DNA from: Escherichia phage vB_EcoM_phAPEC6
Sequence record: MK817115.1
Reading direction: 5' to 3' (one strand)
Length of the DNA stretch: 64,000 nt
Positions 8,707 through 40,503 of the stretch are shown one piece after another. The notes beneath the pieces are model-generated. The model did not search any database and was not told where the DNA came from. It was given only the letters and a program-made list of their open reading frames with translations. Within the stretch, counting starts at the first letter, position 1, and each line of letters begins with the position of its first letter. Both the position numbers and the translations under genes were made by a program.

Positions 8707-8718
8707 TTTATCACCTTA

Positions 8719-8750: not shown

Positions 8751-8781
8751 GATTATACATAATTACTTTTTCTATGTCAAG

Positions 8782-12277: not shown

Positions 12278-13510
12278 TTACTTATACCATTGCATTTCTC
12301 TAATATCAATGATAATTTTTGATGCTAACTTGATGTTTGGTTTTTTAGGAAGTACTGATTTCTTATATAGAACATCACGAATGTATTGTACTTTATCATC
12401 GAAATATTCTAATACTTCTTCATACTTCCATTTACCATTACGAATATCCATCAACATTTGTGCATCTGGTCGTTTAACTTGAATAATTCCACTTTGTAAC
12501 GCTTCTTCTGCACTATTCAAAAGTCGGATTGTGTGCATAGCATGTTTACAATCGTATCCGTGTTGTGATTCTAAAATAGCACGTTTGGCATTACGATTTT
12601 CTTTCCATTTATGATAACTTTTCCTATTCTCACTATTTTCCTGATATTCTTTTTCGTTAAATTTGACAATTAGTTCTGGTTTGGTTTTCAACTCTTCAGT
12701 ACTACGTTCTTTTGAAAAATAACGCAATGAACCATCATGGTTAATAGTGCTTTCATTAGGATTCTTAACAATCGCAAAAATGTTTTCTCCGTAATGAATT
12801 AGTTCATAACCATTATTAAAATTCAATAAATTGAAATCACGATCAAGAATTTTTTCAGTAGTGTAGTTATGCACTAATCTTACGAAATGATATTGCTTTA
12901 ATGGATTTTTCGAAACTAACTGCAATGATGTATCACGCATATATTTTTCAAAATCAATCTTTTTAGCATTAAATGGATGTAAGTTGGATGTATCTAAACG
13001 TTCAACAAGATACTGTGGGAATGAATCATACATCCACGCAAGAACCTCATCGACAGGGTGTTCTTCTAAAATCTCATTTAATCGTTTTTCAGCAATACGC
13101 TCTTTATCCATCCAACCGTGATGATTTGTCATACGCTTAATCTGATTATATGCATATCCAGTGTATGAAAATGCAATCTTGGAACTAAGAAGTTTTTGGT
13201 TAAATGAACGAAGATAGTCATAAATTTCAGTACTTTCCACAATGTGTTCAGGTTCAACCCAAAGTGATTCAAGAATATTAGGGTTAGCTTCAGTGTATAA
13301 TTTTAAATACTGATTCAACTCATAGAATTTAGTATCTTCTTCGCTTTTGTCAGCTACCTCGTTGACCTTATAGAAGGGTGTAAGAATAAATTCTTTATTA
13401 GCAAGAAAAATACCACGATAATCAGTATCACTTTCCGGTGTACTGGTTCCGTAGGCTTGTGACCCAGCCAAGTGTTTCACTATTGTTTGTTCAATATATT
13501 GGTTATTCAT
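12278..13510 (-). CDS. Pol-beta-superfamily nucleotidyltransferase-domain protein
   Basis: 410 aa; N-terminal GSQAYGTSTPESDTDYRG fits the minimal NTase motif GS-x10-DxD. Confidence 0.5.
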   Translation of the reverse strand: MNNQYIEQTIVKHLAGSQAYGTSTPESDTDYRGIFLANKEFILTPFYKVNEVADKSEEDTKFYELNQYLKLYTEANPNILESLWVEPEHIVESTEIYDYLRSFNQKLLSSKIAFSYTGYAYNQIKRMTNHHGWMDKERIAEKRLNEILEEHPVDEVLAWMYDSFPQYLVERLDTSNLHPFNAKKIDFEKYMRDTSLQLVSKNPLKQYHFVRLVHNYTTEKILDRDFNLLNFNNGYELIHYGENIFAIVKNPNESTINHDGSLRYFSKERSTEELKTKPELIVKFNEKEYQENSENRKSYHKWKENRNAKRAILESQHGYDCKHAMHTIRLLNSAEEALQSGIIQVKRPDAQMLMDIRNGKWKYEEVLEYFDDKVQYIRDVLYKKSVLPKKPNIKLASKIIIDIREMQWYK

Positions 13511-15578: not shown

Positions 15579-18308
15579 TTATTTCCAACGTGTACCTGGA
15601 CCTGATGGTACACCAGTACTGGCAGGTATCGCTGAACCACGTTTCGTTGTACTTGGACGATATGTCAAAAAACGAGTTACTTTTTCTGTATCAATTGAAG
15701 TTATTCCTGAAGTTCCAGTAACTATCTTACCAATGTAAGTGCTAGTTAAAGATTCATCAATTGTTTCAGTACTAATAACATATGACGCTTTCTTAGTATT
15801 CCTGTTCATTTGTATATACAAATAGAACGTAGTATTAGCTGGGTTACTTTTTACAGTACTTAAATCAACACTTTGTATAGGTAGTCTGTCGAAAATTCCA
15901 CCTAAAAACACCGGAACTTCACGTGTAAAGTACACTGAGAATCCTTGTGCAACGTCTTGTGATACTACCACAATCTTTTCTTTAACGCTACCATTTCCAC
16001 TAATTAAACCATCCATTTCAGCAGATGTTGTACCAAAAACGCTGAATACAGATTTGGTTTGATAGTCAGAATCTTGAAAATTGTAATATCCAAAACCAAC
16101 ACCAGGAATAACACCATGTTGATATGCTGCACCAAGTTGGATGTAACTAGATGATAAAAAACGATTTGATGTTATGACACCATCTACTGTTTTAGCTATC
16201 ATCATCTTAAATTGTGCATTACCTGGTTGTGAAAATTGATGAACAGCATCAACACCAATGTAACCAAATCCTGAATATTTTGCAACTGTTAGACCAGTAC
16301 AACGTTTCATATATGCTTCAGTAATAATTCCTGTAACAGAACTAAGTGTCTCATATCTAGTACTCACCAATGTAGCTGAAGTTATGTTAGTTCCAGATAA
16401 TACAACATCAACTTCGGCATAGATTGCATAACCTTGGTTATTGTTAAGATTATATGCTGAAACTACTGCGATGGATTTAGAAAAAGTATTATCAGGTACA
16501 TAATATAATACAATTTGTCCAGATAGTGTGCCAACAATGCCAGAGTTTCCTATATTAGCAAAAATATCTTGTTTTAATGATTCTAATACCGTTGGTTCTA
16601 TTGTATATGTTTCATCAAATTCTAAAGTATCTGGGTTTAATAATCCACCACTTGTTTTATATACACCTTCAATGAATGATGTTCCATAGCATCTAACACT
16701 ACCATCGGTATCAACAAGAGAAATCATAGCAGTGTATGTAAAATCATCGCCTATTTGTTTACGATTAGATTGTGGTGCAAAACCATTTAATGTAGTATTA
16801 TTTTGAACTGAGTTATATTGATATGTTGGTTGTGAACCTATTTCAGAAAAAACAGTATTATTATAATTATATGTTACATCATCATACGTACCAGAACATG
16901 CTAATAATATTTTTCTATTATCGATGAAACGTACACCTAAAAGGTTTGCACCAACAGCACTACCAAAAACTGGTAAAACGTTTGCATTTATAACGTTACT
17001 TGCGGTTCTAGTACTGGCAACCCATGAATCAAACGGTGTACCACTAACCTTATATCGTTGTAGACCATAAAATTCAGTTGAACTCCATCTAAATTTAGAT
17101 GCAAATACCAAACCATCTTTAGTTTGACATAAACCACCTGCGTTTCCTAATACACCAGCAGCAGTTGTCCCTGTGAAGTTGACCATATTAATTTCAAATG
17201 GGTTAGAAACTTGAAATCCATTATTATATGAAACAGTTGCAGGTGCACGAGCACTACCATCTAGTGACATAGATTTTGAGTTTATATTATAAACAAAACT
17301 TATTCCAGTACCATAAACTGTTGAAATATACAAAGGTGTAACCATTCGATGTGTTGGATATAAAGTTACACGTATTTTTGATAAATCAGTACTAACGTTG
17401 GCTTGAATGTTAAAGTCTGTATAGTCTGAAAATTCTACACGTGATACTGGTGATGTAACTTCGAATAATGAATCCGAGCTAGTACCAACACTATATAATT
17501 TATCGAACACTCTTATGTTATTAGATGCAGAATAACTTGTGTTTCGAACAGTTTGACCTGATAACCCAGTAACTTTTGTTAATGATGCCATTGAGCTTGC
17601 TTTCACATCACTTAGCTCTACTGTATAAATTGAAAGTGCTAATCCTAAATTAGAAACACTTTTATCTTTACACCAAATATAAACCTTTGTCCCAACAATA
17701 TGTGTATATATTGGCATATCATTACCAAAAGAAGTACTTGGCACTTTAGCATGAATATGTGATATTTCGTTAAATGTGCCATTGGTTATAGTAAAAATAT
17801 AATTATCTTCAGTACTTAAACATCCAAGCATCTCATAACCATTAGAGCCAATAAAATACTTAATATTTTCAGTACTACTCATAATTGAAGGTTTATACAT
17901 TGAATTGGTTGAAATAACACTTTCTTGTGAAATCATAGTTATATTTCGGAGTTCTCGTATAAATGAATAATAAAAACCTTTAGTACTACCATTGGTTCCG
18001 CTACGCAGAACAACGGCGGTTCCATCATCTTCAATAATTGTTGGCTGAACTACTTGGTCACTTGACATAGGTGTAGCACCTTCATACGACCCACTTACGT
18101 TTAATGGTAAGTAATCCATTTCTCCTACACGTGATATAGGCAACATATCTAAAATACTTTGAACTTCTGAACGCTTATATATTGGATATTGAACAATTCC
18201 AGTATTGGCATTCGGTGAGGTTCCATTAAAAGTACGCATAGCGTACCTTTGTCCAATTGCCAAGTTCCCAAGGATCTCGGCACTTCCTATAATTCGTTTT
18301 GATGACAT
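15579..18308 (-). CDS. tail fiber protein
   Basis: About 909 aa from ATG 18308 (RBS AAGGAAAAG); N-terminal LRSGTNGS and C-terminal VVSQDVAQGF...SRF.TYRPS module shared with 18924..21620 and 18325..18912; track ORF start 18398 is probably too long. Confidence 0.55.
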   Translation of the reverse strand: MSSKRIIGSAEILGNLAIGQRYAMRTFNGTSPNANTGIVQYPIYKRSEVQSILDMLPISRVGEMDYLPLNVSGSYEGATPMSSDQVVQPTIIEDDGTAVVLRSGTNGSTKGFYYSFIRELRNITMISQESVISTNSMYKPSIMSSTENIKYFIGSNGYEMLGCLSTEDNYIFTITNGTFNEISHIHAKVPSTSFGNDMPIYTHIVGTKVYIWCKDKSVSNLGLALSIYTVELSDVKASSMASLTKVTGLSGQTVRNTSYSASNNIRVFDKLYSVGTSSDSLFEVTSPVSRVEFSDYTDFNIQANVSTDLSKIRVTLYPTHRMVTPLYISTVYGTGISFVYNINSKSMSLDGSARAPATVSYNNGFQVSNPFEINMVNFTGTTAAGVLGNAGGLCQTKDGLVFASKFRWSSTEFYGLQRYKVSGTPFDSWVASTRTASNVINANVLPVFGSAVGANLLGVRFIDNRKILLACSGTYDDVTYNYNNTVFSEIGSQPTYQYNSVQNNTTLNGFAPQSNRKQIGDDFTYTAMISLVDTDGSVRCYGTSFIEGVYKTSGGLLNPDTLEFDETYTIEPTVLESLKQDIFANIGNSGIVGTLSGQIVLYYVPDNTFSKSIAVVSAYNLNNNQGYAIYAEVDVVLSGTNITSATLVSTRYETLSSVTGIITEAYMKRCTGLTVAKYSGFGYIGVDAVHQFSQPGNAQFKMMIAKTVDGVITSNRFLSSSYIQLGAAYQHGVIPGVGFGYYNFQDSDYQTKSVFSVFGTTSAEMDGLISGNGSVKEKIVVVSQDVAQGFSVYFTREVPVFLGGIFDRLPIQSVDLSTVKSNPANTTFYLYIQMNRNTKKASYVISTETIDESLTSTYIGKIVTGTSGITSIDTEKVTRFLTYRPSTTKRGSAIPASTGVPSGPGTRWK

Positions 18309-18324
18309 CTTTCTTTTCCTTAAT

Positions 18325-18912
18325 TTACCAACCAATTGTACCAGTTTCTGATGGTTTTCCAGTACTGACTGGGAATGAAGAACCTTTTTGTGTAACACTA
18401 GGTCTATATGTACTAAATCTGGATACTTTATTAATGTTTATATTTGTAATACCACTTGTACCAACGGTCAGTGTTCCAATAAACATTATAATTTCAGATT
18501 CTTGTATTTGTGTTGGTGATATTTTATAAATTGGTTCACCGAGAACTAACGTTGCATATACGTATTGTGTTTGTGTTCCAGATGAAACAGTTGAAGCAAA
18601 AATAGAAACTGCTGGAAATTTATAAAGATAACCACCAATAAATGATGGTATCTGTCTATTAAATGTAAGACTATAGCCTGATGAAGTAATATTTAGACTA
18701 GCGTCATCATACAATTCTCCGTATTGTGTAAGTGGTAATCCATTGACAATAAAGTTAACTTCATCTTTGGTAATAGAGGGGAATGTACATTCCCCATTTG
18801 AATTTGTTGGGTAATAAGTCATATTATTACCTAATACACCAAGACCAGTACTTTTACCCTGAACTGTAACTTGTTGCATTGCCTTAAGGTCTGCTCTTAT
18901 TTTATATGCCAT
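18325..18912 (-). CDS. small tail fiber-related protein carrying the shared C-terminal module
   Basis: 195 aa; C-terminus SRFSTYRPSVTQKGSSFPVSTGKPSETGTIGW matches the C-termini of both large fiber proteins. Confidence 0.5.
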   Translation of the reverse strand: MAYKIRADLKAMQQVTVQGKSTGLGVLGNNMTYYPTNSNGECTFPSITKDEVNFIVNGLPLTQYGELYDDASLNITSSGYSLTFNRQIPSFIGGYLYKFPAVSIFASTVSSGTQTQYVYATLVLGEPIYKISPTQIQESEIIMFIGTLTVGTSGITNININKVSRFSTYRPSVTQKGSSFPVSTGKPSETGTIGW

Positions 18913-18923
18913 TATGTAATCCT

Positions 18924-21620
18924 TTACCAGTTTATGGTTCCTGTTTGTGATGGTAGACCGTAGCTAACTGGGAACGATGAACCTGCTGATTCAAGTGAAG
19001 CACCAAATATATCTAAACGGGAACGTTTTTGTATATTAATTGTTTCGATTTGAATTGCATTAGTTTGAATTGTACCTATCCAAAAAATATTATATGCAGT
19101 TGTCCCTGTTTCAGAAATAACATCAGTAGTTATGTAATAGTTTGCCAATCCTTGTTCCAATTTAACATATACATAAAATGTTGTATTTGCTGGATTAGAC
19201 TTAATAGTTCTCAAATCAATATTTGAAACTGGTAGTGAAAATGACTTACCTGAAAGAATAACTGGTGTTTCCTCTGTAAAATATACAATAAACCCTTGAG
19301 CAACGTCCTGGGATACTACGTTAATTGGGCTACCTTGTGCAGTCCAGTTATTATAGTCTGCAATCGTTGTTCCATATTTTTTGAATGTCATTTTATTTGA
19401 GTAATCCATTGGTTCAAAAATTCCAAAACCAATACCAGGTAATGCTGCTGGTTGACTTCCTTGTTCATAACTGGCATGAGATCCAGTAATTATAAAACTT
19501 GTAAATTGTGCAGTTGATTTAGTTACATATGCTCTAAATTGATGAGTTGCAGTATTACCTATTGTTGGATGTGATAATGGGTCAGAACCACCAATGAAGT
19601 AGAATGAACCACCATCATATATGGTCAAACCAACAGAAGAAGATGCAATCGAACCATTCCCAGTTGGTGTAAAGTTATCACCATACGTATTCTCAAGTAC
19701 TAAACGCTTAAATGTAATAGATGTAATATTACCAACTCTAGTATTGACATTAACTTCAGCAATTCTAATATAGTTTCTATAATCATTAGTAATTGTACTC
19801 AACATAACAAAAGCTGGAATGTCTGTTTGTTGTGGAACAAATAGTGTCATATCACGGTATGCTTGTGCTGATAAATTCCAATCACTTAGAACTTTGGCAT
19901 ATTCAGTATTTCTAAAATTGTCCAGTACTGATTGTGTAACGCTTATAATTCCTGTGCCATTTAAGTTTTTATCATAGGATAATGATTGTGAATAACGTTG
20001 CCCAACCATAAAAATACCACCATTGGTTGTGACAGTTGACCCAGAAATACTACTAATAAAAATTCTATTATTTGCATTATCATCAACATTAGCACGTTCA
20101 ACTGTAGGTTCATAACCTTGTATTGTTCCTAAAGATAATGATTTAAATGTAAAATTAGGAGTACTTTTATGAACTGCATATGATGGTCTAAATCCACCAC
20201 TACCTGATGCACGTGAATATTGTTTAGTACTGTTATCTGGTAGTAATTCTACACCATTAATAAATGAACCAACCGCTGAACCAAAAGACGGGCGAACTAT
20301 ACCACCTTTGAAGTCAGTAGAAAGTACAGCACGGACATTCAGCATACTATAAACTATTTGAATAGGAAACTTAGCTTTTTGCATAAGTAATGGTTCTGCT
20401 AAGTTTGGACATGTAGTACAAAAAGCTTCACCAGAATTCAAATAAAAATATGAACTATAAATGTTTCTTGCATTTGCATGGTTATACAATGGATCGTTAT
20501 TTAAAACGTTACCAGTAGGAACTAATGCCGAACCAGTATTAGTTATAACTAATGGTGCTTGATATGAACCAATATCGTTACCCGCATCTAATGTACATTG
20601 TTTAGTACTCATATTGAACACAAAACTGTAACTATGCTGTGGACGTGTATTATATGTTGCCATTGTAAACCAAGCGTCCCCGTTCATTCTAAAGCGGAAA
20701 TTCTGCGTTCCTGGCTGCTGTGCAACATATAAATCAATTGATGTCATGTAAATCCCAATACCACGTAGATTTTGTGGAACATACACATAAGGTTTATCAG
20801 CAATATTTGTTGATGTTACCTGATTAGTAATAACCATATTATTTTGTGCAGAATATGTCGTGTTATAAAATGTTTTAGTAGTCCATCCAGTAATTCGAGT
20901 TGCAGTATAAGTACCATTGCTTATATTATAAACAACTTTTACAACAACTAATTGTAGTTGGTTATTTTCATTAAGTACGTTAAAAACATATATAGAACCA
21001 TCTTCTGCCATCATAGCATATTCAATACCACCTTCAGGTGATATATCTGCTTGGTTAACGAAAAAACCAGTATGCAATTTATCATCTAATGTACCATTGG
21101 TAATTGATATGAACAAACCATTAGTACTGTTAGAAGTATCAATATATCTACCGAGTAAAATATTTGGATCAGTATTGTATAAACCAATCGCAACTCTATT
21201 TGAACCAAAAAACCCAGGCTTGTATTGACGACTAGTGTTAATTGTACGGCTCATGTCATCAACTGATAATGCGTTAGCCAAATATGAATAAAATAATCCC
21301 TCAACACTACCGTTTGTCCCACTACGTAAAAGTACTAGTGTACCATCGTTTTCTAATAAAATTTTATTTCTACGTTGTGACTGGTTTTCTGATGCACCAT
21401 TGAAATCCCCAGAAACACCCGCAGGTAGATAGTTTTGTGAACCATAATGGGAGATTGGCATCATACTTACTATATCTAGTACTTCATCTCTGGAATAAGT
21501 ATCTAATTCCAAGTTACCGTTGGAATCAAAAACTTGTTCATTTATTCCTTGAATTGTTCTTTTACCATTAACTGTCACATTATGTGTGACATCTAAGCCA
21601 CCATATATTTTCTTTGACAT
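18924..21620 (-). CDS. tail fiber protein
   Basis: 898 aa; paralogous to 15579..18308; T4-type late promoter upstream. Confidence 0.55.
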   Translation of the reverse strand: MSKKIYGGLDVTHNVTVNGKRTIQGINEQVFDSNGNLELDTYSRDEVLDIVSMMPISHYGSQNYLPAGVSGDFNGASENQSQRRNKILLENDGTLVLLRSGTNGSVEGLFYSYLANALSVDDMSRTINTSRQYKPGFFGSNRVAIGLYNTDPNILLGRYIDTSNSTNGLFISITNGTLDDKLHTGFFVNQADISPEGGIEYAMMAEDGSIYVFNVLNENNQLQLVVVKVVYNISNGTYTATRITGWTTKTFYNTTYSAQNNMVITNQVTSTNIADKPYVYVPQNLRGIGIYMTSIDLYVAQQPGTQNFRFRMNGDAWFTMATYNTRPQHSYSFVFNMSTKQCTLDAGNDIGSYQAPLVITNTGSALVPTGNVLNNDPLYNHANARNIYSSYFYLNSGEAFCTTCPNLAEPLLMQKAKFPIQIVYSMLNVRAVLSTDFKGGIVRPSFGSAVGSFINGVELLPDNSTKQYSRASGSGGFRPSYAVHKSTPNFTFKSLSLGTIQGYEPTVERANVDDNANNRIFISSISGSTVTTNGGIFMVGQRYSQSLSYDKNLNGTGIISVTQSVLDNFRNTEYAKVLSDWNLSAQAYRDMTLFVPQQTDIPAFVMLSTITNDYRNYIRIAEVNVNTRVGNITSITFKRLVLENTYGDNFTPTGNGSIASSSVGLTIYDGGSFYFIGGSDPLSHPTIGNTATHQFRAYVTKSTAQFTSFIITGSHASYEQGSQPAALPGIGFGIFEPMDYSNKMTFKKYGTTIADYNNWTAQGSPINVVSQDVAQGFIVYFTEETPVILSGKSFSLPVSNIDLRTIKSNPANTTFYVYVKLEQGLANYYITTDVISETGTTAYNIFWIGTIQTNAIQIETINIQKRSRLDIFGASLESAGSSFPVSYGLPSQTGTINW

Positions 21621-27746: not shown

Positions 27747-28127
27747 TCATTTAGTAAAACACGAATTATTACTGATAAGTTCATCAAGTACGTTTTGTAC
27801 TTCGATAGAATTAATATCAACTTTGTAATAATTATAGTTTTTAACTCTAAAATGTTCTTTTGATATATCAACTTTAAATTCAATAATATCAAGATTACCA
27901 ATAAAATCAGACTTATCAGTTCTTAAATCCAAAATACCTAATTCCGGTTTTTGTGGTTTACATAAAATCAAACCAAATTTATTTTCTTCAAATGCCTGAT
28001 TAAACATATCATAATAATCACTAATAACAAATCTAATATTATCAGTGCTTAACTTTCCTGATTTTCCTTTTTTATAAACAGAAACAATGTTTAGTTCAAA
28101 GGTTTTACCAAAGCGTGTGATTTTCAT
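27747..28127 (-). CDS. hypothetical protein
   Basis: 126 aa ORF. Confidence 0.4.
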   Translation of the reverse strand: MKITRFGKTFELNIVSVYKKGKSGKLSTDNIRFVISDYYDMFNQAFEENKFGLILCKPQKPELGILDLRTDKSDFIGNLDIIEFKVDISKEHFRVKNYNYYKVDINSIEVQNVLDELISNNSCFTK

Positions 28128-29095
28128 TTTGGGCTATAACCACTTTTAATTTTGGAAATTACTTTCTTCTCGAAGAACTTACGTGCTTCTTCAATAGTTT
28201 CGAATTCTTCACCATCAGTAGTACTGGTTTTACCAATAGCACCGTACTCAATAATTACTTCACACACTGGAGCATTCAATTCAATATTATAGAATTTGTT
28301 TGAAGAACCGTGAACATATTCCAAATGAACATTATCAGGAATGTTCTGTACATAATCATAGTTCTTGAAGATAATATCAATCATATTTTCTTCGCCGCGA
28401 TCAGGAAATAGTTCAGTATTATTCAGTACTAAACGCTGTGCAGCACGGAACATATCAAAATATTGTTCGCCTTTTTTCAGTTCTTTTGTATCAGAACAGA
28501 AATGACCATAATATTCTACATAATCATTCCAAGGATAAATTCCTTCATCAGCAGTTTCAAAAACGTAAGTTTCATCTTGTGGAACTTTAAAACCACGAGT
28601 TTTTGGATGAGAAATTAAGCACAGTGAAATATTATGACCGATATCTGAATCATCAGTAATACTACCACCAACCATATGAACAACATTTTTAATACGTTCA
28701 AAATCTACATCTTCAATTTCATGATACATTAAATGTTCTTCAATATTACTTACTAGTAATGAATTACCATTTCCGGCATCGAATTCAAAAATGAAAAGTT
28801 CTACACAATCTTCTTCTTTCATTTCAATAGTATCACTGAGTTTAATATACTCATTTTTTAATTGTTCAATATTTTCATGAGAACCAAAACTATAACGTGA
28901 ACTGATATAACTACTACCGTCCAACCATCCCATATCCCAAGGTTCTTCTGACATGTATTCTGAGCTATAGAAATGAGTCAAATCATCTCTCTGAGTACAA
29001 ACCGTAAGAGAGCGAACATTATTAAGACCTTGAACTTCAAGATTCAGTACTGTAGTATTGCCAATTTTTTGTTCAGAAATAATTTTAGTTTTCAT
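28124..29095 (-). CDS. hypothetical protein
   Basis: 323 aa ORF. Confidence 0.5.
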   Translation of the reverse strand: MKTKIISEQKIGNTTVLNLEVQGLNNVRSLTVCTQRDDLTHFYSSEYMSEEPWDMGWLDGSSYISSRYSFGSHENIEQLKNEYIKLSDTIEMKEEDCVELFIFEFDAGNGNSLLVSNIEEHLMYHEIEDVDFERIKNVVHMVGGSITDDSDIGHNISLCLISHPKTRGFKVPQDETYVFETADEGIYPWNDYVEYYGHFCSDTKELKKGEQYFDMFRAAQRLVLNNTELFPDRGEENMIDIIFKNYDYVQNIPDNVHLEYVHGSSNKFYNIELNAPVCEVIIEYGAIGKTSTTDGEEFETIEEARKFFEKKVISKIKSGYSPK

Positions 29096-31274: not shown

Positions 31275-32714
31275 TTACATATTTTCTTCAGCAAATTCTG
31301 CAAGTGGTGAACGAACAACACCTTCTAGTTCGATGACACGACAACCTGCCCAATCTTTAAACTTCTCAGTTACATATGTCAAACCACTGTTAACAGGACT
31401 AATAAACTTACTGTCAATCTGACTCAAGTTACCCATAATTACTACTTTACAGTTTAATCCTGCTCGTGTCAAGATTGTTTTGGCTTGTGCAGGTGTAATG
31501 TTTTGGAATTCATCAACTACTAGAATAGTGTTGGTGAATGAACGTCCACGTACAAAGTTTAGTGCTTTAAATTGAATAACATTACGTTTCATAATCTCTT
31601 CAATACTACCTTGAGGGTTAGCATCATCTTTATGAAGAAACTCTAACGCGTCAATTGCGGCTCCACAGAATGGAATCACTTTTTCTGCTTCTGAACCTGG
31701 CAAGAAACCAATATCTTCAAACTGTGAGTCTTGAGTTTTAGAGAAGATGATTCGGTCGTATTTACGTTTTTCCAGTACTAATTCTAATGCAGTAGCAATC
31801 GTAATTAGTGTTTTACCAGTACCAGCAGAACCTAGCAGTACTGTTAGATGTACATCAGGATCGAGAATACTGTTGATGGCGAGTGCTTGTTGGATATTCT
31901 TTGCTTTAATATCCCATACTTTAGCACGTAAAGCTACTGATTGTCCAATATCTTGGAATACCAAAATATCTTCTGGTGTTAGTGTTCCATCATCTTCCTC
32001 AATTGCTGATTGACCTTCGTACACAAATAATACGTCTGCATCATCATATAGATAATCACCGATGCATAGATTTTGTGGGAGCAAATGCTCAATCAAGCTT
32101 TTGGAAATGTAATGATACAAACGACGACCAACTTGTTCGGATTGAATATTAGTATTGGTTAAGTTGCTGTATACTTCCCAAAAATTGATTTCCAAATGGT
32201 GTTGACCAATGTGAATCAAATCACTATCACCAATAACAATATCATGGCGATAATCTTGTACCTCGACACCATAACTTAGTGCTTTGATACGCATGTTGAT
32301 ATCACGAGTTACCAGTACTGATTCTGTTGCTAAAGCTACCAGAATGATTTTATCATCAGGTACTGTGCTTTTGAGAAGGGTTTGAACTTTCTCTTCTGAA
32401 CCTTTAGTACGAATTAGTGCTTCAGCTTCTTCGTTTGTAATAACAAACAATTTGCTATCAGGATTCATATTGGTATGAACATCAGCAATATTAACACCAG
32501 TACTACTAATCTCATCATGTGATGCATCTGCAATAATTGCTTCAATGTTACGAATAGCAACACGAGCATCGCGTGAAACATCTACATTACGACTCTTAAT
32601 TGAATCCAATTCTTCCAGTACTGTAAATGGTAGAATGATTGCAGCACCATCAAAAGCAATAGATGCATTAGGGTCAGATAGTAGTACGTTTGTGTCAATT
32701 GTATATTTTTTCAT
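31275..32714 (-). CDS. phoH: PhoH-like ATPase with N-terminal PIN domain
   Basis: 479 aa; Walker A LGSAGTGKT, Walker B VVDEFQN; N-terminal PIN-like acidic residues. Confidence 0.8.
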   Translation of the reverse strand: MKKYTIDTNVLLSDPNASIAFDGAAIILPFTVLEELDSIKSRNVDVSRDARVAIRNIEAIIADASHDEISSTGVNIADVHTNMNPDSKLFVITNEEAEALIRTKGSEEKVQTLLKSTVPDDKIILVALATESVLVTRDINMRIKALSYGVEVQDYRHDIVIGDSDLIHIGQHHLEINFWEVYSNLTNTNIQSEQVGRRLYHYISKSLIEHLLPQNLCIGDYLYDDADVLFVYEGQSAIEEDDGTLTPEDILVFQDIGQSVALRAKVWDIKAKNIQQALAINSILDPDVHLTVLLGSAGTGKTLITIATALELVLEKRKYDRIIFSKTQDSQFEDIGFLPGSEAEKVIPFCGAAIDALEFLHKDDANPQGSIEEIMKRNVIQFKALNFVRGRSFTNTILVVDEFQNITPAQAKTILTRAGLNCKVVIMGNLSQIDSKFISPVNSGLTYVTEKFKDWAGCRVIELEGVVRSPLAEFAEENM

Positions 32715-33403: not shown

Positions 33404-33955
33404 CTATAGATAACTAATTAGTAAGTTTTCTTTTTGAACCAGATACTCCAATTCTTGTCTTGCTGTACCGATGAAGTTCTGTGTCATAAGATTATTATAT
33501 CCCGCTTCTCGATTTTGTCCCTTAGAATAACGAGAAATATGACATAAATTTACACCAGCAACTTCTGCACTTGCATGTTTAGCATTAGTGTATCCATCTC
33601 TAATGTGTTTCAACTCGTCATAGGTTACTTCATAGCTAAAACTGTGACTGTTTGCACCTGGGTAAATTTCAAAAGTTTTGAGTGGTCGAAGATGGGAAAC
33701 AAAAATATTGTAATCCATTTCTTCTTGAACTTCACGACGCAACGCATCTTCTAGTGAGATATCAGTACTTTCTACGGTTCCACCACATCCACCAAGAAGA
33801 CCATCCCATCGTAATTGCAGTAATACTAAATTTACTTCTGGTATATCATTCAACTCATAGTTTTTGTAAGGGTTGCATTTTCTTGCAAAGAAATAACAAA
33901 ATACAAAATTTGCACGTGTGCCATATTCACCAAAGGGAACTTCTTTAACACTCAT
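33404..33955 (-). CDS. Nudix hydrolase
   Basis: 183 aa; Nudix-box-like GGTVESTDISLEDALRREVQEEMDY (REUxEE core present, spacing and final Gly atypical). Confidence 0.55.
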   Translation of the reverse strand: MSVKEVPFGEYGTRANFVFCYFFARKCNPYKNYELNDIPEVNLVLLQLRWDGLLGGCGGTVESTDISLEDALRREVQEEMDYNIFVSHLRPLKTFEIYPGANSHSFSYEVTYDELKHIRDGYTNAKHASAEVAGVNLCHISRYSKGQNREAGYNNLMTQNFIGTARQELEYLVQKENLLISYL

Positions 33956-34710
33956 TTCATACGTTCCTTAATTATAGTCTCTAGATGCGGTATTGCTTTG
34001 GTTGCTGGCTTGATAACTTTTTCATTAAACAAAAAATCATTATCATTTTTACGAATGTTAACATTAACACTATAACATGGTAATGCTGCTGCTAATCTCG
34101 ACCATACCAGTACTGTATCGCTACTACCAATTACAATAACTGTATCATTTTCATTAAGAGATTTCAACACATTATTTCGTTCTTCGTAAATTGGTAAGCG
34201 AATACCATCAACATAACGATGATATTCTCCAATCATTACTACATTTGGTTTAGCAAAAACATCATGTTTTGGTATGTATGGTTCGTATCCGCAGTTAATA
34301 ACATTATAATCATCGGAATTGATACTATAATTTTCAATAACTTCGCACAAGTTTCCATGAAGTTTAAGCTCATGACCACCAATACGAGTATAAAGATCGT
34401 CCATGTTAGAAGTCATATGAAGGAAGCAATCACCATATTGATCTTCTAACGATTTTATAAAATAATGCATTGCATTCGGTTCGCATTGTCCCAATTTTAC
34501 ACGTAATGTATTATAGAAAGAATGAACAACATGATATTTTGTAGTTAAACTAGCAATGTTACATACATCATTAATTTTAAATGTATCCCACAAACCATCA
34601 TCAAATCGAAAAGGTTCCATACCACTTTCAACAGAAAGTCCTGCACCTGATATAATCAGTAATCGCTTTTTACCTTCATTGCTTATAAATTTTTCTGATA
34701 TCATATTCAA
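33952..34710 (-). CDS. Sir2-family NAD-dependent protein
   Basis: 252 aa; sirtuin motifs GAGLSVESGMEPFR, HG, GSS; no obvious Zn ribbon. Confidence 0.55.
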   Translation of the reverse strand: MNMISEKFISNEGKKRLLIISGAGLSVESGMEPFRFDDGLWDTFKINDVCNIASLTTKYHVVHSFYNTLRVKLGQCEPNAMHYFIKSLEDQYGDCFLHMTSNMDDLYTRIGGHELKLHGNLCEVIENYSINSDDYNVINCGYEPYIPKHDVFAKPNVVMIGEYHRYVDGIRLPIYEERNNVLKSLNENDTVIVIGSSDTVLVWSRLAAALPCYSVNVNIRKNDNDFLFNEKVIKPATKAIPHLETIIKERMK

Positions 34711-34907
34711 TCCTTATAAAAAACAATTAAATATATTGATAATAACAGAATGATTCCAATATGATAGGCATACATAAAATTATTATCTTTGTGATAACCA
34801 TTGGATTTCAAGTCCCTATATAAGCATTTAGCATTGTTATAAATTACAACAATAGAAAAAACTATAAAAAAACTCAAAACCCATTCATAAATTGTGTATG
34901 CCATCAT
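34707..34907 (-). CDS. small membrane protein
   Basis: 66 aa, two hydrophobic helices. Confidence 0.35.
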   Translation of the reverse strand: MMAYTIYEWVLSFFIVFSIVVIYNNAKCLYRDLKSNGYHKDNNFMYAYHIGIILLLSIYLIVFYKD

Positions 34908-34934: not shown

Positions 34935-35528
34935 TTAATATTTTAAAACATCAAACTCTTCGCTTACGCTTGTTACATTATCACTAACAATTTTAAAAAT
35001 TGATTTGATACGTTCGTGTAGTGGTTTTTTAGATTCGTTCTCAACTTCAATATATGCTTGCATTGCTGCAATTGCATGATATGTCCCACTACCTACTGCG
35101 GTAATTCTTGTTTTAGGTTGTAGTACTGAAAAGTCTTCTTGAACTTCATAGATTGTATGATTGTGGAGAATGATAAATTGTCCACCTCCTACATCTTGTG
35201 ATGCATCTCGTGCACCCCATTCTTCTTTAAACATTTGACGAATAATTGGAATAACTTTAAGAACCAAATATTGTGAAAATGTTTGACTAGCATCTTGTTC
35301 AGGTAAATTAAGGTTATAATTTAACAACTGACCCATACGAAATGATGTAGTATAACCCAATGCCATTACTTCTTTAGTTCTAGTTAGTCCATCATCATGT
35401 AACTTGATAAATTCTTTCTCGAATACCTTTGGCTCAGTTTGAACAGTTTTTGTAAATCCATTGCTTCCTAACTTATCCCCAGCAATAAAAGAACTTACTC
35501 CGTCAGTGTGTGCAATAATACAGGTCAT
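34935..35528 (-). CDS. HslV-like Ntn-hydrolase peptidase
   Basis: Start moved to ATG 35528 (MTCIIAHTDGVSSFIAGDKLGSNG resembles HslV MTTIVSV...VIAGDGQATLGN); AVGSGTYHAIAA resembles HslV GSGSPYALGAA. Confidence 0.45.
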   Translation of the reverse strand: MTCIIAHTDGVSSFIAGDKLGSNGFTKTVQTEPKVFEKEFIKLHDDGLTRTKEVMALGYTTSFRMGQLLNYNLNLPEQDASQTFSQYLVLKVIPIIRQMFKEEWGARDASQDVGGGQFIILHNHTIYEVQEDFSVLQPKTRITAVGSGTYHAIAAMQAYIEVENESKKPLHERIKSIFKIVSDNVTSVSEEFDVLKY

Positions 35529-35785
35529 AAAATAGCTCCAATTGCAAATAATGTTGTGTATAAGATATAAATTAGTGCTCCTAACAACATTAGGCACACC
35601 AAGTATGAAGTTGATAGTACATAATAAATTATTGCTTCGAATTTTGAATTGAACTTCATTGTAGTTGAATCAATAAAGCCATTACGATAATCTTTGTAAA
35701 TGAAAACTGTTAGAAAAATAACTGTAGCATACATTACTACAGTAGCATAAAAAATAATAGATGTCAAGTTTTGGATGTTTGTCAT
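35525..35785 (-). CDS. membrane protein
   Basis: 86 aa, three hydrophobic segments. Confidence 0.4.
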   Translation of the reverse strand: MTNIQNLTSIIFYATVVMYATVIFLTVFIYKDYRNGFIDSTTMKFNSKFEAIIYYVLSTSYLVCLMLLGALIYILYTTLFAIGAIL

Positions 35786-35855
35786 AGTTATATAATCTCA
35801 ATATAATTAATAACAAAGGAAGTACATCATAATCATCCTGTTATTTTAATTATTT

Positions 35856-36479
35856 TTATTGTTTGACTGAACCGTAAAAAACCAGTTCTGGTTTTGTTAA
35901 TATTACAACATCTTCACCACGAGAACGACTAACTCTAAATAGAACTTCTGGTGGGATTCCATTTGCTGCATATAGTGAAAAAAGGAAACCTACCTTTGTT
36001 GCCATTTCTTCGGTAAAAGTTGATAACTGTCTTACAGACACAAATGAATTATCACCATCAGTAACATTACTTTTAATCGAAATGTTATGAAGACCCAGTA
36101 CTGAGCGATTTGTCATATATCGCTTTTCGGGAGATACACTAAAGAATACCACAGTACATGCTGAATTGCAATACCTAGAAACAATTAAATTTATCCCATT
36201 GTCTCTAACAAAGTTTGCCATTCGAATACCTGCATCAAAATCACCACCAGGAGATGTAATTGTGATGGTATCATAGTGTTCTTTATCATACAACTCTATC
36301 ATACGCTTGAGTGACCCATCTGTAATATCTGATATGAAATATACATTTCGGGTTTCAGGATTATACTTTATCACATTTTTACTTTCAATACCAGCACTGG
36401 CTGGAAAATTTATTAACAATAGAAACATTGCTGCTTGTATCACTTCAAGCCATAGTCTTTTCATATAACAAGTCCTCAA
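35856..36479 (-). CDS. secreted ClpP/SppA-fold serine peptidase-like protein
   Basis: 207 aa; signal peptide; ITSPGGDFDAGIRMANFV matches the ClpP-fold SPGG motif; start may be the internal ATG (MKRLWLEV). Confidence 0.45.
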   Translation of the reverse strand: MRTCYMKRLWLEVIQAAMFLLLINFPASAGIESKNVIKYNPETRNVYFISDITDGSLKRMIELYDKEHYDTITITSPGGDFDAGIRMANFVRDNGINLIVSRYCNSACTVVFFSVSPEKRYMTNRSVLGLHNISIKSNVTDGDNSFVSVRQLSTFTEEMATKVGFLFSLYAANGIPPEVLFRVSRSRGEDVVILTKPELVFYGSVKQ

Positions 36480-36500
36480 TTTTGTTTAGGAAGATATAAA

Positions 36501-36529
36501 TAATATAGTACTTAAACACTTAAGTCAAA
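36501..36529 (-). promoter_or_regulatory. sigma70-like promoter (TTGACT-N17-TATTAT) for 35856..36479
   Basis: Reverse complement of 36501-36529 reads TTGACT, 17-nt spacer, TATTAT. Confidence 0.3.
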
Positions 36530-36689
36530 CTTTTTCTGTACTTAACTCAAATTTTTAAAAATAAAACTTAAGGTGTACAGTTTATAACAGATCATATCAT
36601 ACCACTGATGTTTTGTCAACTAGTTCATGGTGCATCTGATGTAAAAAACAAATATATTTCATACTTATATTTAAAAAAGGAAATAAAAT

Positions 36690-37067
36690 ATGAAAGCTAT
36701 CGCAGCACAAGGTAAACTACCATTCAATATCGGCGGGTTTTGTGTAACCGCAGCTAATATAAACGGTGAATTGAAATATAACTTGAACATCTTTAATCAA
36801 CGTTCTAGTTGTGTTTACGATCTCATTGATACTGATTTTAATGTTTATCGTTTTGTAACTATCACTAGTTATGATAAAGATAAAATTAGATTAGATGCAT
36901 CTAAAACAGCATTGGAAATTGCACCAACTCTAGCCAAAAATACTTTTTGTATTAAGATTGACGATAGTGCATTTGCTGAATCATTCCAGTTTCATAAAAT
37001 TAAATTGAGTACTGGGGCGATGAAATATCACCCTTGGGATTTGTATTATTGCAACCTCCCAGGTTAA
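36690..37067 (+). CDS. hypothetical protein; only convincing plus-strand gene in the window
   Basis: 125 aa; RBS AAGGAAATAAAATATG; followed on plus by hairpin and T-run. Confidence 0.5.
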   Translation: MKAIAAQGKLPFNIGGFCVTAANINGELKYNLNIFNQRSSCVYDLIDTDFNVYRFVTITSYDKDKIRLDASKTALEIAPTLAKNTFCIKIDDSAFAESFQFHKIKLSTGAMKYHPWDLYYCNLPG

Positions 37068-37098
37068 CAAAAAAGGAGCCTTGTGGCTCCTTTTTTTA
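37066..37098. terminator. bidirectional rho-independent terminator
   Basis: Stem AGGAGCC/GGCTCCT, loop TTGT, A-run before and T-run after on plus; sits between the plus gene and the convergent minus gene. Confidence 0.55.
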
Positions 37099-37353
37099 TT
37101 CTACAGTATTAAGCTTCTGACAAATCATATCAGCTTCTACTCGGTCTTTATAATAAATGGTAAATCCAAATCTACTTGTTACCCTTTTCTCACTACGGTG
37201 TATACAGTTTACAATATAGTACTTATTATTTTGTGCAGAAAAACGAACTTCATAATTTCGAAAAGAAGTATTAGGTTCATCCATAGCAACTATATATAAC
37301 ATAAAAATAAAAAACACTGTTATTAGAAAAGCAATAATAATTATTACTGTCAT
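37096..37353 (-). CDS. small membrane protein
   Basis: 85 aa; N-terminal TM helix. Confidence 0.4.
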   Translation of the reverse strand: MTVIIIIAFLITVFFIFMLYIVAMDEPNTSFRNYEVRFSAQNNKYYIVNCIHRSEKRVTSRFGFTIYYKDRVEADMICQKLNTVE

Positions 37354-37841
37354 TTATCAAGACCCTTATCATAAATGCAATTAACAATAATTCCAGCATC
37401 TTCCAGTACTTTAATAGCTTCTGGTGGTGTACGAGGATAATTTTTGAGATAAATTACACGTGAAATCCCACTACCTGCGATCAACTTAGAACAAGTATAA
37501 CATGGTTGTAGTGTTGTGTAAAGAGTAGCACCTTGACGTTCAGTAGGAGAACTATAGAGTAAAGCGTTCATTTCAGCATGGATTTCATGAATATTACTCC
37601 ACTCATGATGTTCATGCTTTGCTTCATCACTAACCCAGTCTTGAAAACGTCCATCATTGACTAAGTGTTGATTCACATCACAACAATTTGGTTGTTTTGA
37701 TGGAGTACCATTGTATCCAGTACTCAATACTCGGTTATTTTTAACAATAACACAACCAACTTTTTGTGAAATACATTTACTTTCCTCAGCAACTACTTCT
37801 GCTATCTTCAACCAAGTCGTATGTTTCATTATAAGCTCCAA
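37350..37841 (-). CDS. dCMP deaminase
   Basis: 163 aa; HAEMNAL and PCYTCSKLI zinc-binding motifs. Confidence 0.75.
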   Translation of the reverse strand: MELIMKHTTWLKIAEVVAEESKCISQKVGCVIVKNNRVLSTGYNGTPSKQPNCCDVNQHLVNDGRFQDWVSDEAKHEHHEWSNIHEIHAEMNALLYSSPTERQGATLYTTLQPCYTCSKLIAGSGISRVIYLKNYPRTPPEAIKVLEDAGIIVNCIYDKGLDK

Positions 37842-38310
37842 TACTTAACAATGCGTTTTTACACAAATCATGAATTTTCATAACTCGAATATAGTTTAAC
37901 ACATCTGTTTCATTAATTTCAAATGGTTTATCTGCATATGTGGACCACGTTTGATTTAATTCAATAACAAATGTAATTTTATCTGTATCCATAATATTAT
38001 CACAAAATCTACGAAAATCTTGCTCTTCATCGGAAAGTCTGAAATTTAAATCATTTTTTAAACCATTAACTGTGAAGCAAATACCAGTACTGTAACCGAT
38101 GCAAATATCTTCAATATCATATAATCCATAAATTAATTTAGAGATAAACGTGCTATATTTGTTTCTATGATAATAGTTTAATATTTCTTGTTTAATATTA
38201 ATTTCAATATCAGTAGTTTTTTGTAATGTAAGTTTAATTAATTCTAATGTCTTGATTATGTTATCTAACCAGATATTAGTATCATCTATACTTAGGTGTG
38301 TGTATTTCAT
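37786..38310 (-). CDS. hypothetical protein
   Basis: 174 aa ORF. Confidence 0.4.
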   Translation of the reverse strand: MKYTHLSIDDTNIWLDNIIKTLELIKLTLQKTTDIEINIKQEILNYYHRNKYSTFISKLIYGLYDIEDICIGYSTGICFTVNGLKNDLNFRLSDEEQDFRRFCDNIMDTDKITFVIELNQTWSTYADKPFEINETDVLNYIRVMKIHDLCKNALLSIGAYNETYDLVEDSRSSC

Positions 38311-38836
38311 TATGTCCCTCTAGATTCCAATCATCAACGAGTTTAGAACAAACTTCCATATGATTATAGTACTTTTCATCCAATACATACGGTTTATTAT
38401 GATATTGTCGTACATCAGTGAATATATCATAATTTCTATATATGAATGACATATTTTTATGCATTAATTCTATAGTTTTCCAAATTTTCTCAATATCATA
38501 TAGAATTGTTTCTAATGACAAACCTGTTAACTTGGAAATTCTTTCAACTTTAAACCCTGATAACATCATAGTACTGTTGTGTTTAGTTAAGTAACTATAT
38601 CCAATAGAACTATGTATTAACTCAATACTATCAGTGTATGTGATTGTTTTTAGAAATGATTTTATATTTCTATTAAACCAATACCACTTTTTGTTTTTAT
38701 TATAACAACTATACCATTTCTTCAATATATCAATTGCTTCAGAATTAATTTTTAAAGCAAATTCATCAATTAAAAACATATGATGGTAAAAAATATCACT
38801 TTGTTCTTCAGTTAAATTATATTGCTGCATATTCAC
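38282..38836 (-). CDS. hypothetical protein
   Basis: 184 aa ORF. Confidence 0.4.
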   Translation of the reverse strand: MNMQQYNLTEEQSDIFYHHMFLIDEFALKINSEAIDILKKWYSCYNKNKKWYWFNRNIKSFLKTITYTDSIELIHSSIGYSYLTKHNSTMMLSGFKVERISKLTGLSLETILYDIEKIWKTIELMHKNMSFIYRNYDIFTDVRQYHNKPYVLDEKYYNHMEVCSKLVDDWNLEGHNEIHTPKYR

Positions 38837-38914
38837 CTACCCTAGTAACAATGATTCCTTGGGTATTTAGCTCATATAGATCAAAATATGATCAATGGAA
38901 AATTGATATACAGC

Positions 38915-38945
38915 AATAAAAATAGGAATCCCATGATAGGATTCC
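38915..38945 (-). terminator. rho-independent terminator
   Basis: Stem GGAATCC/GGATTCC, loop CATGATA, A-run 38915-38924 on plus. Confidence 0.45.
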
Positions 38946-38956
38946 TTTTCACAATA

Positions 38957-39403
38957 TTATTTTTGATATGGGGTGTACTGATATTTTTCACAATCAGCGA
39001 CAGTTAGAACACCTTCATCATAACCATATTGAAGTACAAGGTCAAATGCTTTATCAACCATAGCAACAACATCTTTATAACGAACAATCTTATGAGATTG
39101 ATTCTCAACTGCTTTCATAATCCCCATTAGCAACCAGCGACCTTCATCGGTGTGTAATTTAGCAAAGCGTGGACGCTTTGTCGCTGCCATAATATCAGTC
39201 CATTCAGCTTTAAAAATGTGTGGACGTTTTGGAATATCATATAGTGTAGTAGGGAAAGTTACATTATTTTTCTTCATTGCTTCTGCTTGTGCTGCACGAT
39301 AGCCCTGACGATATAATGGATGCTGCATTTTTAGCTGTTCAGCACTTAGAACTACTTTTGCTTTGTATGCGTCATAACCATCTTTATATTGTGCATTGGA
39401 CAT
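38957..39403 (-). CDS. hypothetical protein
   Basis: 148 aa ORF. Confidence 0.45.
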   Translation of the reverse strand: MSNAQYKDGYDAYKAKVVLSAEQLKMQHPLYRQGYRAAQAEAMKKNNVTFPTTLYDIPKRPHIFKAEWTDIMAATKRPRFAKLHTDEGRWLLMGIMKAVENQSHKIVRYKDVVAMVDKAFDLVLQYGYDEGVLTVADCEKYQYTPYQK

Positions 39404-39404
39404 A

Positions 39405-39722
39405 TTATTCTTTTACCTCATCAGTTTGAATGTATTTTTTGTCAGAGAATGTACCGTGTTCTTTACGCACAGCTTCTGCATGTTGAACCGCATCAACTGG
39501 ATTAATGTTCTTTTTAATTAGTACTTCCTTCATTAATTCAAGTACAATTGCAAAACCATTCAGCACACGCTCAGATTCATCTACATTTTTTAATTCAAGT
39601 GCTACTGCACTAATTTGATCGAACGCAACATTAATAAAATCGGAATCTTCTAATACATTTGCAACTTCAGTATTATTACGCACTAGTACTTTCATATAAT
39701 CTCCACAAAGATGATGCCCCAT
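39405..39722 (-). CDS. hypothetical protein
   Basis: 105 aa ORF. Confidence 0.4.
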   Translation of the reverse strand: MGHHLCGDYMKVLVRNNTEVANVLEDSDFINVAFDQISAVALELKNVDESERVLNGFAIVLELMKEVLIKKNINPVDAVQHAEAVRKEHGTFSDKKYIQTDEVKE

Positions 39723-39743
39723 ATTGAGGCATCAAAATCTATC

Positions 39744-40439
39744 TTACACCCACTCTTCCACGCCACCGCGACGCTTAACTAAGTACTTGCCTTCTTCGTT
39801 ACGTGGTCCAAGAATAATACCATCAATGAAACCATGTTCACCATATTCAAGAGCTTCTTCTGCATTTAACCACAAATCACGGTCAGCATCTTTAAGTAGT
39901 TGTTCGTGTGTTACACCAACTGCTTCTGCAATTTCTTTAGTCAATAGAGTGTTTAGGGCATCAGAATGTTTAAGTGAAATCTTCTGGTCAGTAATTAGAC
40001 CTTGTGTACCAGAACTTACTTGGTGACACATGAAATAAGAACGCTTACCACCTAAACGGAAACCTTTAGTACCAATTACAGATTGTGTATAGCAACCCAT
40101 TGATGCTGCATAGCCCATTACTACAGTGCGAATTGGAGAAATACAAGACTTAGCAACATCTGCAATACCCAAACCTGCGTGTACTGAACCACCCGGTGAA
40201 CTAATGTAGAATGTAATAGGGGAATCACCTTGTGAGTCTAACCATACCAATTGTTGTTTGATGATATGTGCCATTTGATCATTGAAATCAGTATCAAGGA
40301 AAATGATACGGTCTTGCATCATACGAGATGCTAGATCATATGTACGTTCTGAACCATTAACTTTCTCAACTACGTAAGGAATAGAAATGTTACGTACTTC
40401 GCCATTAGCATAACCACCAAACATGAATTGTTCAACCAT
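39744..40439 (-). CDS. clpP: ClpP-family serine protease
   Basis: 231 aa; SSPGGSVHAG and GYAASMG active-site region, His in FMCHQVSSG. Confidence 0.8.
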   Translation of the reverse strand: MVEQFMFGGYANGEVRNISIPYVVEKVNGSERTYDLASRMMQDRIIFLDTDFNDQMAHIIKQQLVWLDSQGDSPITFYISSPGGSVHAGLGIADVAKSCISPIRTVVMGYAASMGCYTQSVIGTKGFRLGGKRSYFMCHQVSSGTQGLITDQKISLKHSDALNTLLTKEIAEAVGVTHEQLLKDADRDLWLNAEEALEYGEHGFIDGIILGPRNEEGKYLVKRRGGVEEWV

Positions 40440-40503
40440 TATTAATTTCCTCTATTATTTCGTTGTTGTGAGTATTATATCACTAAGATTTAAAATGTCC
40501 AAA

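Follow-up and report, generated by a model that had tools for sequence, protein, structure and literature searches.

Within a 64,000-nucleotide stretch of the genome of Escherichia phage vB_EcoM_phAPEC6 (sequence record MK817115.1; this whole 64-kb stretch is called the window below), three predicted peptidase genes lie on the minus strand within 5.5 kb. They encode a ClpP homologue, a second and much more divergent ClpP-fold protein, here named ClpP-like-2, and an HslV-like N-terminal nucleophile (Ntn) hydrolase. We consider it quite probable that these are three separate peptidases, namely a ClpP working with a ClpA and a ClpS of the phage itself, an exported ClpP-like-2 and a stand-alone HslV-like enzyme.

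39744..40439, minus strand: ClpP homologue, 231 amino acids (aa), recognised by Pfam CLP_protease, matches to ClpPs in the PDB and its triad
35856..36464, minus strand: ClpP-like-2, 202 aa, predicted exported ClpP-fold Ser/His hydrolase, recognised by signal peptide and motifs
34935..35528, minus strand: proteasome-beta/HslV/BPH-like Ntn hydrolase, 197 aa, recognised by phrog_1040 and Thr1/Asp17/Lys33

The window belongs to an Asteriusvirus, a Rak2-like jumbo myophage of E. coli, and such genomes measure about 350 kb. The 6.5 kb around the peptidase genes are 99.0-99.5% identical to those of BAU.Micro_ELP-22, vB_EcoM_G17, Sharanji, PBECO4 and slurp01, and 93% identical to those of phage 121Q. 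A sequence-only reading of the window had pointed out three unrelated protease homologues within 6 kb. The three open reading frames (ORFs) were confirmed, all of them on the minus strand and where that reading placed them. They are not all unrelated, since ClpP-like-2 has the fold of ClpP and is homologous to it (BLASTP, 29% identity over 100 aa, E 5e-4), so that only two families are represented.

The ClpP homologue matches the Pfam model CLP_protease (PF00574) with 141.4 bits (E 3.8e-41, cut-off 20.2) over profile positions 2-179 of 182, and in phmmer searches it matches ClpPs in the PDB at about 5e-36, with the AASMG, H and DRD motifs aligned. Its identity to E. coli ClpP amounts to 35%, and the predicted triad S113/H139/D188 aligns with S97/H122/D171 of the E. 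coli enzyme. The N-terminal gating region resembles that of cellular ClpP. The first 19 or so residues are variable and likely represent a propeptide, and the C-terminus carries an extension of about 20 aa. The protein scores below the NCBIfam orthology cut-offs (151.1 versus 308.6 bits for the equivalog model TIGR00493 and 155.3 versus 249 bits for the subfamily model PRK00277). Judged by its sequence, it is a diverged member of the ClpP family with a complete predicted triad and not an equivalog; the earlier description as a canonical ClpP was right about family and triad and went too far with the word canonical. ClpP was found in 142 phage records.

No homologue of ClpX, ClpA, HslU, Lon or ClpS was detected in the window, whether in the annotation, in Pfam scans of large ORFs that lack annotation or in tblastn searches with the E. 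coli proteins, which bears out the earlier observation that an unfoldase is missing there. However, the idea attached to this observation, that the phage brings proteolytic cores only and borrows the unfoldases of its host, does not hold for ClpP and may still apply to the HslV-like protein. A tblastn search with E. coli ClpA revealed a full-length homologue in PBECO4, in 121Q (annotated as 'ClpA-like protein'), in slurp01, in SP27 and in other Rak2-like phages. The phage protein shares 43% identity with E. coli ClpA at 95% coverage (E 6e-180) and retains both Walker A/B pairs and the pore loops, and the IGL tripeptide that docks on ClpP reads IGM. In 121Q the gene is located about 83 kb from ClpP and therefore beyond the 64-kb window; in PBECO4 (NC_027364.1), where the product is gp539, it occupies 330788-333076. 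It encodes the sole AAA+ unfoldase homologue of the whole PBECO4 genome, in which no homologue of ClpX, HslU or Lon was found. PBECO4 furthermore encodes gp457 (NC_027364.1 249684-250229; L029:2684-3229), a protein of 181 aa annotated as 'ATP-dependent protease', in which the ClpS domain PF02617 is recognised with 24.7 bits (cut-off 23) behind a long N-terminal extension. ClpP and ClpA show a matching genus-level distribution across Rak2-like phages, with 33 versus 32 records for phages of Escherichia, 10 versus 11 for Klebsiella, 8 versus 8 for Erwinia and 11 versus 11 for Pseudomonas.

A putative AAA+ partner of ClpP with an IGM docking loop is therefore present in genomes that are about 99% identical, outside the stretch covered by the window. 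Because ClpA with its IGM loop and ClpS occur in near-identical genomes and ClpP and ClpA share their distribution, we propose a ClpS/ClpA/ClpP protease of the phage's own; by its gene content the phage appears to carry the complete set, dispersed round the genome. ClpP would most likely assemble with the ClpA-like unfoldase, guided by the ClpS-like adaptor, and the resulting cytoplasmic protease would serve ATP-dependent, possibly N-degron-directed, degradation during infection. The likeness to the ClpAPS system of E. coli includes the S14 fold, the Ser-His-Asp triad, the propeptide-like N-terminus and the gating-loop sequence of ClpP, two AAA+ rings, pore loops and an IG(L/M) docking loop in ClpA, and the presence of a ClpS-domain protein. 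In contrast to E. coli, identities reach only 35% (ClpP) and 43% (ClpA), ClpP stays under the equivalog cut-offs, is extended by 20 aa at its C-terminus and differs in pocket residues, the genes are scattered, and the ClpS-like protein of 181 aa is extended at its N-terminus.

The sequence-only reading had also proposed to look for an adaptor among the small ORFs next to the peptidase genes. Two tightly spaced ORFs of 96 and 148 aa follow ClpP directly, and both Salmonella phage Munch and the metagenomic contig L016 encode them in this order (42-54% identity). Searches of Pfam and the PDB with both gave no match, and no homologue of known function was found. They could be candidate ClpP-associated factors, or their conservation could be mere synteny. 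The window lacks a ClpS homologue, and the ClpS-like protein is encoded elsewhere.

The start of ClpP-like-2 (ORF 35856..36479) was set to the ATG at 36464 on the basis of its homologues, of public annotation and of a Shine-Dalgarno sequence, GAGGA. The protein scores 17.4 bits with the Pfam ClpP model PF00574, below the cut-off of 20.2, and belongs to phrog_26024 ('protease'); since sequence searches of the PDB returned noise only for both ClpP-like-2 and the HslV-like protein, fold searches were required for these two. A signal peptide is conserved at about residues 1-24 (MKR...FPASA|G). It is followed by the motifs S71-P-G-G, C99-N-S101-A-C103 and H126, in which the nucleophile stands in a C-x-S-x-C motif. 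S101 and H126 are invariant in 158-160 of 162 representatives, and their spacing is ClpP-like. The protein has a ClpP fold and is predicted to be exported via a cleavable Sec signal peptide. The sequence-only reading had called it a signal-peptide-bearing ClpP/SppA-fold protein; the conserved signal peptide and the ClpP fold stand, the start has moved, and an assignment to SppA (S49) is rejected, as neither the Ser-Lys dyad nor a closest structural likeness to SppA was found. The membrane- or periplasm-facing ClpP-fold peptidases SppA (S49) and NfeD/1510-N nevertheless belong to the closest kinds for comparison. After leaving the cytoplasm, ClpP-like-2 would most likely act as a periplasmic, ATP-independent Ser/His peptidase, and the two cysteines of the C-x-S-x-C motif may form a disulfide.

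ClpP-like-2 was detected in 49 phage records, about 47 of which are Rak2-like jumbo phages. An exhaustive search at E <= 1e-3 gave 426 representatives of the family (one per 50%-identity cluster). We found no named and characterised family that matches these exported C-x-S-x-C proteins; they may correspond to COG3904, 'predicted periplasmic protein'. At the three loci inspected (L017, L032 and L033), bacterial members have no consistent gene context. On a chromosome of Vibrio aestuarianus (L017 6001-6753) a member adjoins a cluster resembling those for bacteriocins or for ribosomally synthesised and post-translationally modified peptides, with a 61-aa peptide, a radical SAM enzyme, an HlyD-like protein and a C39-peptidase ABC exporter. 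The other two loci, on a metagenomic contig of 2.2 kb (L032) and on a Shewanella-like chromosome (L033), were uninformative.

The HslV-like protein has no match in Pfam, and it matches phrog_1040 ('peptidase HslV family') at 4e-24. After removal of the initiator methionine, it shows Thr1, Asp17 and Lys33, with G-S-G at residues 146-148; counted with the methionine, T2, D18 and K34 are invariant in 35 of 35 sequences of the family. With its N-terminal Thr, Asp17, Lys33 and the alpha-beta-beta-alpha sandwich fold it belongs to the proteasome-beta/HslV/BPH superfamily (MEROPS T1). However, the HslV models themselves are missed by far (18.9 versus 157.75 bits for TIGR03692 and 19.9 versus 137 bits for PRK05456), a tblastn search with E. 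coli HslV reaches E 0.004 over 43 residues only, and the protein resembles the partner-less BPH just as closely as HslV. The earlier call of an HslV-like Ntn hydrolase with Thr right after Met is confirmed in fold and catalytic residues and does not extend to HslV proper. Further differences from HslV are an invariant Cys2 (T-C-I-I and not T-T) and the lack of HslU, which was found neither in the window nor in the whole PBECO4 genome nor beside the homologues inspected in other phages. PBECO4 gp010, annotated as 'ATPase', was considered as a hidden HslU-like partner and rejected, since it gives only a borderline AAA match, has no relatives in the PDB and sits among virion genes. Assignment to PPH (about 140 aa) is unlikely as well, because the family measures 180-197 aa (197 aa here) and both helix pairs, including helix H2, are present. 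The Asteriusvirus members carry an insertion of about 19 aa at residues 38-56. We propose that the protein would act as a stand-alone Thr1 Ntn peptidase whose nucleophile would be exposed by methionine aminopeptidase.

HslV-like genes occur in 197 phage records, including T5-like Epseptimavirus and phages of Aeromonas, Vibrio, Geobacillus and Xanthomonas, and where loci were inspected (EPS7, Aeromonas, Vibrio and Geobacillus), the annotation lists neither ClpP nor an unfoldase within about 4 kb. In the window, the stop codon of an 86-aa ORF overlaps the HslV-like start (ATGA), which suggests possible translational coupling of the two genes. Small membrane-protein genes also directly precede the HslV-like gene in Munch (79 aa, two transmembrane (TM) segments) and in EPS7 ('membrane protein', 102 aa); such a protein is absent in L005 and XacN1 and was rejected as a universal partner. 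As further observations, a PhoH-family ATPase gene lies a few genes from the HslV-like gene in five phage lineages (the window, L005, L008, L024 and L019), both genes being directly adjacent in L024, and Aeromonas phage 4L372D (L019 4001-5454) has two adjoining phrog_1040 genes (184 and 294 aa), reminiscent of a two-subunit arrangement.

The arrangement of the region involves the following further features.

40474..40501, minus strand: sigma-70-like promoter match just upstream of ClpP, TGGACA-16-TATAAT with TG (pattern match only)
38957..39695, minus strand: the two small conserved ORFs (96 and 148 aa) directly downstream of ClpP, recognised by conserved order
38924..38946, minus strand: terminator-like hairpin after the ClpP/96-aa/148-aa unit, from a scan; a terminator is annotated there in phage G17
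36690..37067, plus strand: Ig-like virion structural protein, divergent from ClpP-like-2 (phrog_33171; note in 121Q 'structural protein; Ig domain')
36465..36689, no strand assigned: intergenic region between the divergent ClpP-like-2 and Ig-like genes, with two near-consensus sigma-70-like promoter matches
36619..36591 (TTGACA-17-TATGAT) and 36528..36500: these two matches, facing ClpP-like-2 (pattern scan, consensus match only)
35525..35785, minus strand: 86-aa protein with two predicted TM segments (residues 10-28 and 62-80), from sequence and hydropathy
34707..34907, minus strand: 66-aa protein with two predicted TM segments, between the HslV-like gene and Sir2, from hydropathy and a weak match to phrog_18969 (membrane protein)
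within 33404..34710: Sir2 and NUDIX genes (NAD-related)
31275..32714, minus strand: PIN-PhoH gene (PhoH-family ATPase)

Nearly every gene of the window is encoded on the minus strand, and the peptidase region is part of a minus-strand block of non-structural and auxiliary-metabolism genes, which also holds DNA ligase, metallophosphoesterase, dCMP deaminase, Sir2, NUDIX and PIN-PhoH. ClpP, with a promoter match of its own, forms a unit with the 96-aa and 148-aa ORFs that ends at the terminator. The plus-strand Ig-like gene and a second terminator separate it from another unit, in which ClpP-like-2, the 86-aa protein, the HslV-like protein, the 66-aa protein, Sir2 and NUDIX follow each other on to PIN-PhoH. 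The counts of the promoter and terminator scans do not exceed the shuffled expectation, so single sites can be suggestive at most, and the region 36465..36689 as a whole is not enriched for promoter matches. The three genes probably belong to at least two transcription units and not to one protease system.

The cluster appears to be mostly inherited synteny. L016, a distant metagenomic relative, keeps the order ligase, phosphoesterase, ClpP, dCMP deaminase, Ig-like and ClpP-like-2, and Munch keeps ClpP, deaminase, HslV-like, Sir2, NUDIX and PhoH, with NAD-salvage genes replacing ClpP-like-2. These are an adenylyltransferase and an NAPRTase exactly in the ClpP-like-2 slot (L013 4081-7263). In L016, ClpP-like-2 is closely followed by an NMNAT-NUDIX fusion (8663-9766), and an NAPRTase gene lies nearby in L005 and XacN1. 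Wherever the pair was seen (the window, L007, L015 and L016), the Ig-like/Big_2 gene, of variable size (125-629 aa), is divergent from ClpP-like-2. By Monte-Carlo simulation for a 348-kb genome, the nominal p for three of four peptidase genes to fall within 5.5 kb by chance is about 0.003, a post hoc value that rises to 0.02-0.1 under more conservative settings. Elsewhere in the window, two ORFs of about 900 aa on the minus strand (15579..18398 and 18924..21620) gave no Pfam match; a WGR-domain protein (28124..29095) and an RlaP-type nucleotidyltransferase (12278..13510) are encoded near them.

Several points weigh against the reading as three separate peptidases with a ClpS/ClpA/ClpP protease of the phage. 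ClpA and ClpS were read from relatives of about 99% identity and not from the window, the ClpP, ClpA and ClpS genes are dispersed, at least 83 kb apart, and form no operon, and the ClpS match lies barely over its cut-off, with the equivalent of His66 not clearly conserved. Part of the docking pocket of E. coli ClpP is conserved in phage ClpP, but other residues of it are changed (Y60T, F82S and L114G). The pairing of ClpA with ClpP is an inference, as are the compartments, enzymatic activities, substrates and timing of expression, and export and disulfide formation of ClpP-like-2 are deduced purely from its sequence. The position of ClpP-like-2 aligned to Asp171 varies between D, N, E and K, leaving the third triad residue without conservation. 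In L005 and L008, two smaller phage contigs that are related to each other and represent a second lineage, a ClpP-fold gene of phrog_1827 (2.5e-34 and 1.4e-48) lies immediately upstream of the HslV-like gene; its product is cytoplasmic and in one case carries C-G-S-M-C, which hints that ClpP-fold and HslV-like genes may not be fully independent. Finally, ClpP was found by mass spectrometry in virion preparations of phage CBB (CBB_104, one peptide) and of PA5oct (L034 2950-3621; electrospray ionisation tandem mass spectrometry, ESI-MS/MS).

Among the alternatives, it seems unlikely that the phage supplies only cores that dock on host ClpX/ClpA and HslU and redirect ATP-dependent proteolysis of the host, as the sequence-only reading proposed. 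The window without an unfoldase, the cellular-type gating region and partly conserved docking pocket of ClpP, and the PBECO4 genome without HslU, ClpX and Lon, which leaves the HslV-like protein without a phage partner, speak for it. It is opposed by the phage's own ClpA with its docking loop, by the ClpS-like protein and by the identical genus-level distribution of ClpP and ClpA; for the HslV-like protein, the great distance from true HslV, the equal closeness to BPH and the presence of the family in phages of Gram-positive hosts, for example Geobacillus E3, argue against docking on HslU. We regard it as very improbable that ClpP is the head-maturation (prohead) protease, although its best PHROG match is phrog_94 'head maturation protease', the RefSeq entries NC_027364 and NC_025447 carry the identical product name, and the virion preparations contained its peptides. 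PBECO4 gp520 is a Peptidase_S77 (1e-20), a prohead protease of the T4 gp21 type, two genes from the major head protein in a region that also holds the scaffold and portal genes. ClpP lies about 225 kb away from it in the PBECO4 record, among ligase, phosphoesterase and deaminase genes and with no head or packaging gene within about 5 kb. It scores 151-155 bits with models of cellular ClpP against 51 bits (cut-off 120) with the head-maturation model NF045542. No scaffold domain is present, so that it is not a prohead protease fused to scaffold. In PA5oct, DNA ligase and MazG bear the mass spectrometry flag as well, so that the ClpP signal may stem from carry-over. Because a separate S77 protease of the gp21 type stands beside the major head protein, the RefSeq label on ClpP is probably wrong, a carry-over from PHROG 94. 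T4 gp21 and the head proteases of NF045542 and PHROG 94 are likewise phage-encoded ClpP-fold serine proteases and share the public label; phage ClpP is far closer to cellular ClpP and lies outside the head-gene cluster. Head maturation would fall to the S77 enzyme, and a separate head protease is in line with what has been published on phAPEC6 and CBB from proteomics and annotation.

A single protease module, in which the ClpP-fold and proteasome-like hydrolases cooperate, possibly with the small membrane proteins and with ClpP recruited nearby, is in our view improbable. The genes for ClpP-like-2, the 86-aa protein, the HslV-like protein and the 66-aa protein adjoin each other in one orientation, with the ATGA overlap among them, and the neighbours in L005 and L008, one with its C-G-S-M-C, as well as the nominal clustering value favour it. 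However, the phyletic spread differs (49 records for ClpP-like-2, 197 for HslV-like and 142 for ClpP), Munch and XacN1 have HslV-like without ClpP-like-2, and RaK2 has ClpP-like-2 yet HslV-like matches occur in only two Klebsiella phage records. The predicted compartments are periplasmic for one and cytoplasmic for the other, and ClpP sits in a separate transcription unit. As a general phage module the combination was rejected, since no ClpP-fold neighbour was found in EPS7, Aeromonas 4L372D, Geobacillus E3, Vibrio 2.058.O, L022, L023 or L024. Least probable of all is that at least one of the three is a pseudo-protease without catalytic activity, serving as scaffold or decoy. The third triad residue of ClpP-like-2, which is not conserved, could suggest it. 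In contrast, even at 20-30% identity the nucleophiles and general bases do not vary, and the catalytic residues that the earlier reading had proposed to check are intact (S/H/D in ClpP, the Ser/His pair in ClpP-like-2 and Thr1/Asp17/Lys33 in the HslV-like protein, for the latter two in the proportions given above).

Besides three separate peptidases, we tentatively entertain two linked readings, to which we assign little probability: that an unnamed exported ClpP-fold Ser/His family remodels the periplasm, and that a ClpP-fold protein and a proteasome homologue form an unfoldase-independent two-peptidase module. The cysteines of C-x-S-x-C could form a disulfide gated by redox state or by export, Rak2-like jumbo phages may use ClpP-like-2 on the host periplasm, for instance to destroy a receptor or a component of envelope defence, and the ClpP-fold hydrolase that stands beside a stand-alone phage proteasome homologue in two lineages could represent a partner-less pair.

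Public records already contain the three genes and label them as proteases. The GenBank entry of 121Q from 2014 annotates 'protease (ClpP-like)' twice and 'protease (ClpYQ-like)' once for them. Iyer et al. 2021 considered ClpP of group 2.2 jumbo phages a candidate anti-host peptidase and noted phage ClpA, ClpX and ClpS (PMC7824862), ClpA has been described as conserved in Rak2-like phages in the paper on Atu_ph07 (PMC6102473), and Fuchs, Alva and Lupas 2021 described phage-borne group I proteasome homologues (PPH, AAH and CPH) related to HslV and BPH (PMC8665760). BFVD holds at least 32 viral proteasome-like folds. Experimental work on these phage proteins was not found in the literature.

With phage ClpP, ClpA and ClpS as well as proteasome homologues catalogued in comparative studies, the observation of the three genes adds little by itself. 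The useful outcomes are the phage's own predicted ClpS/ClpA/ClpP set and the doubtful head-protease label that ClpP bears in RefSeq. Two uncharacterised peptidase families are, moreover, conserved enough for experiments. One is the exported ClpP-fold family with its C-x-S-x-C motif; the other is the stand-alone Thr1 proteasome homologue, which tractable phages of the T5-like Epseptimavirus carry as well. If the proposed ClpS/ClpA/ClpP protease is real, a phage that imports N-degron machinery could selectively destroy proteins of its host, defence proteins included.

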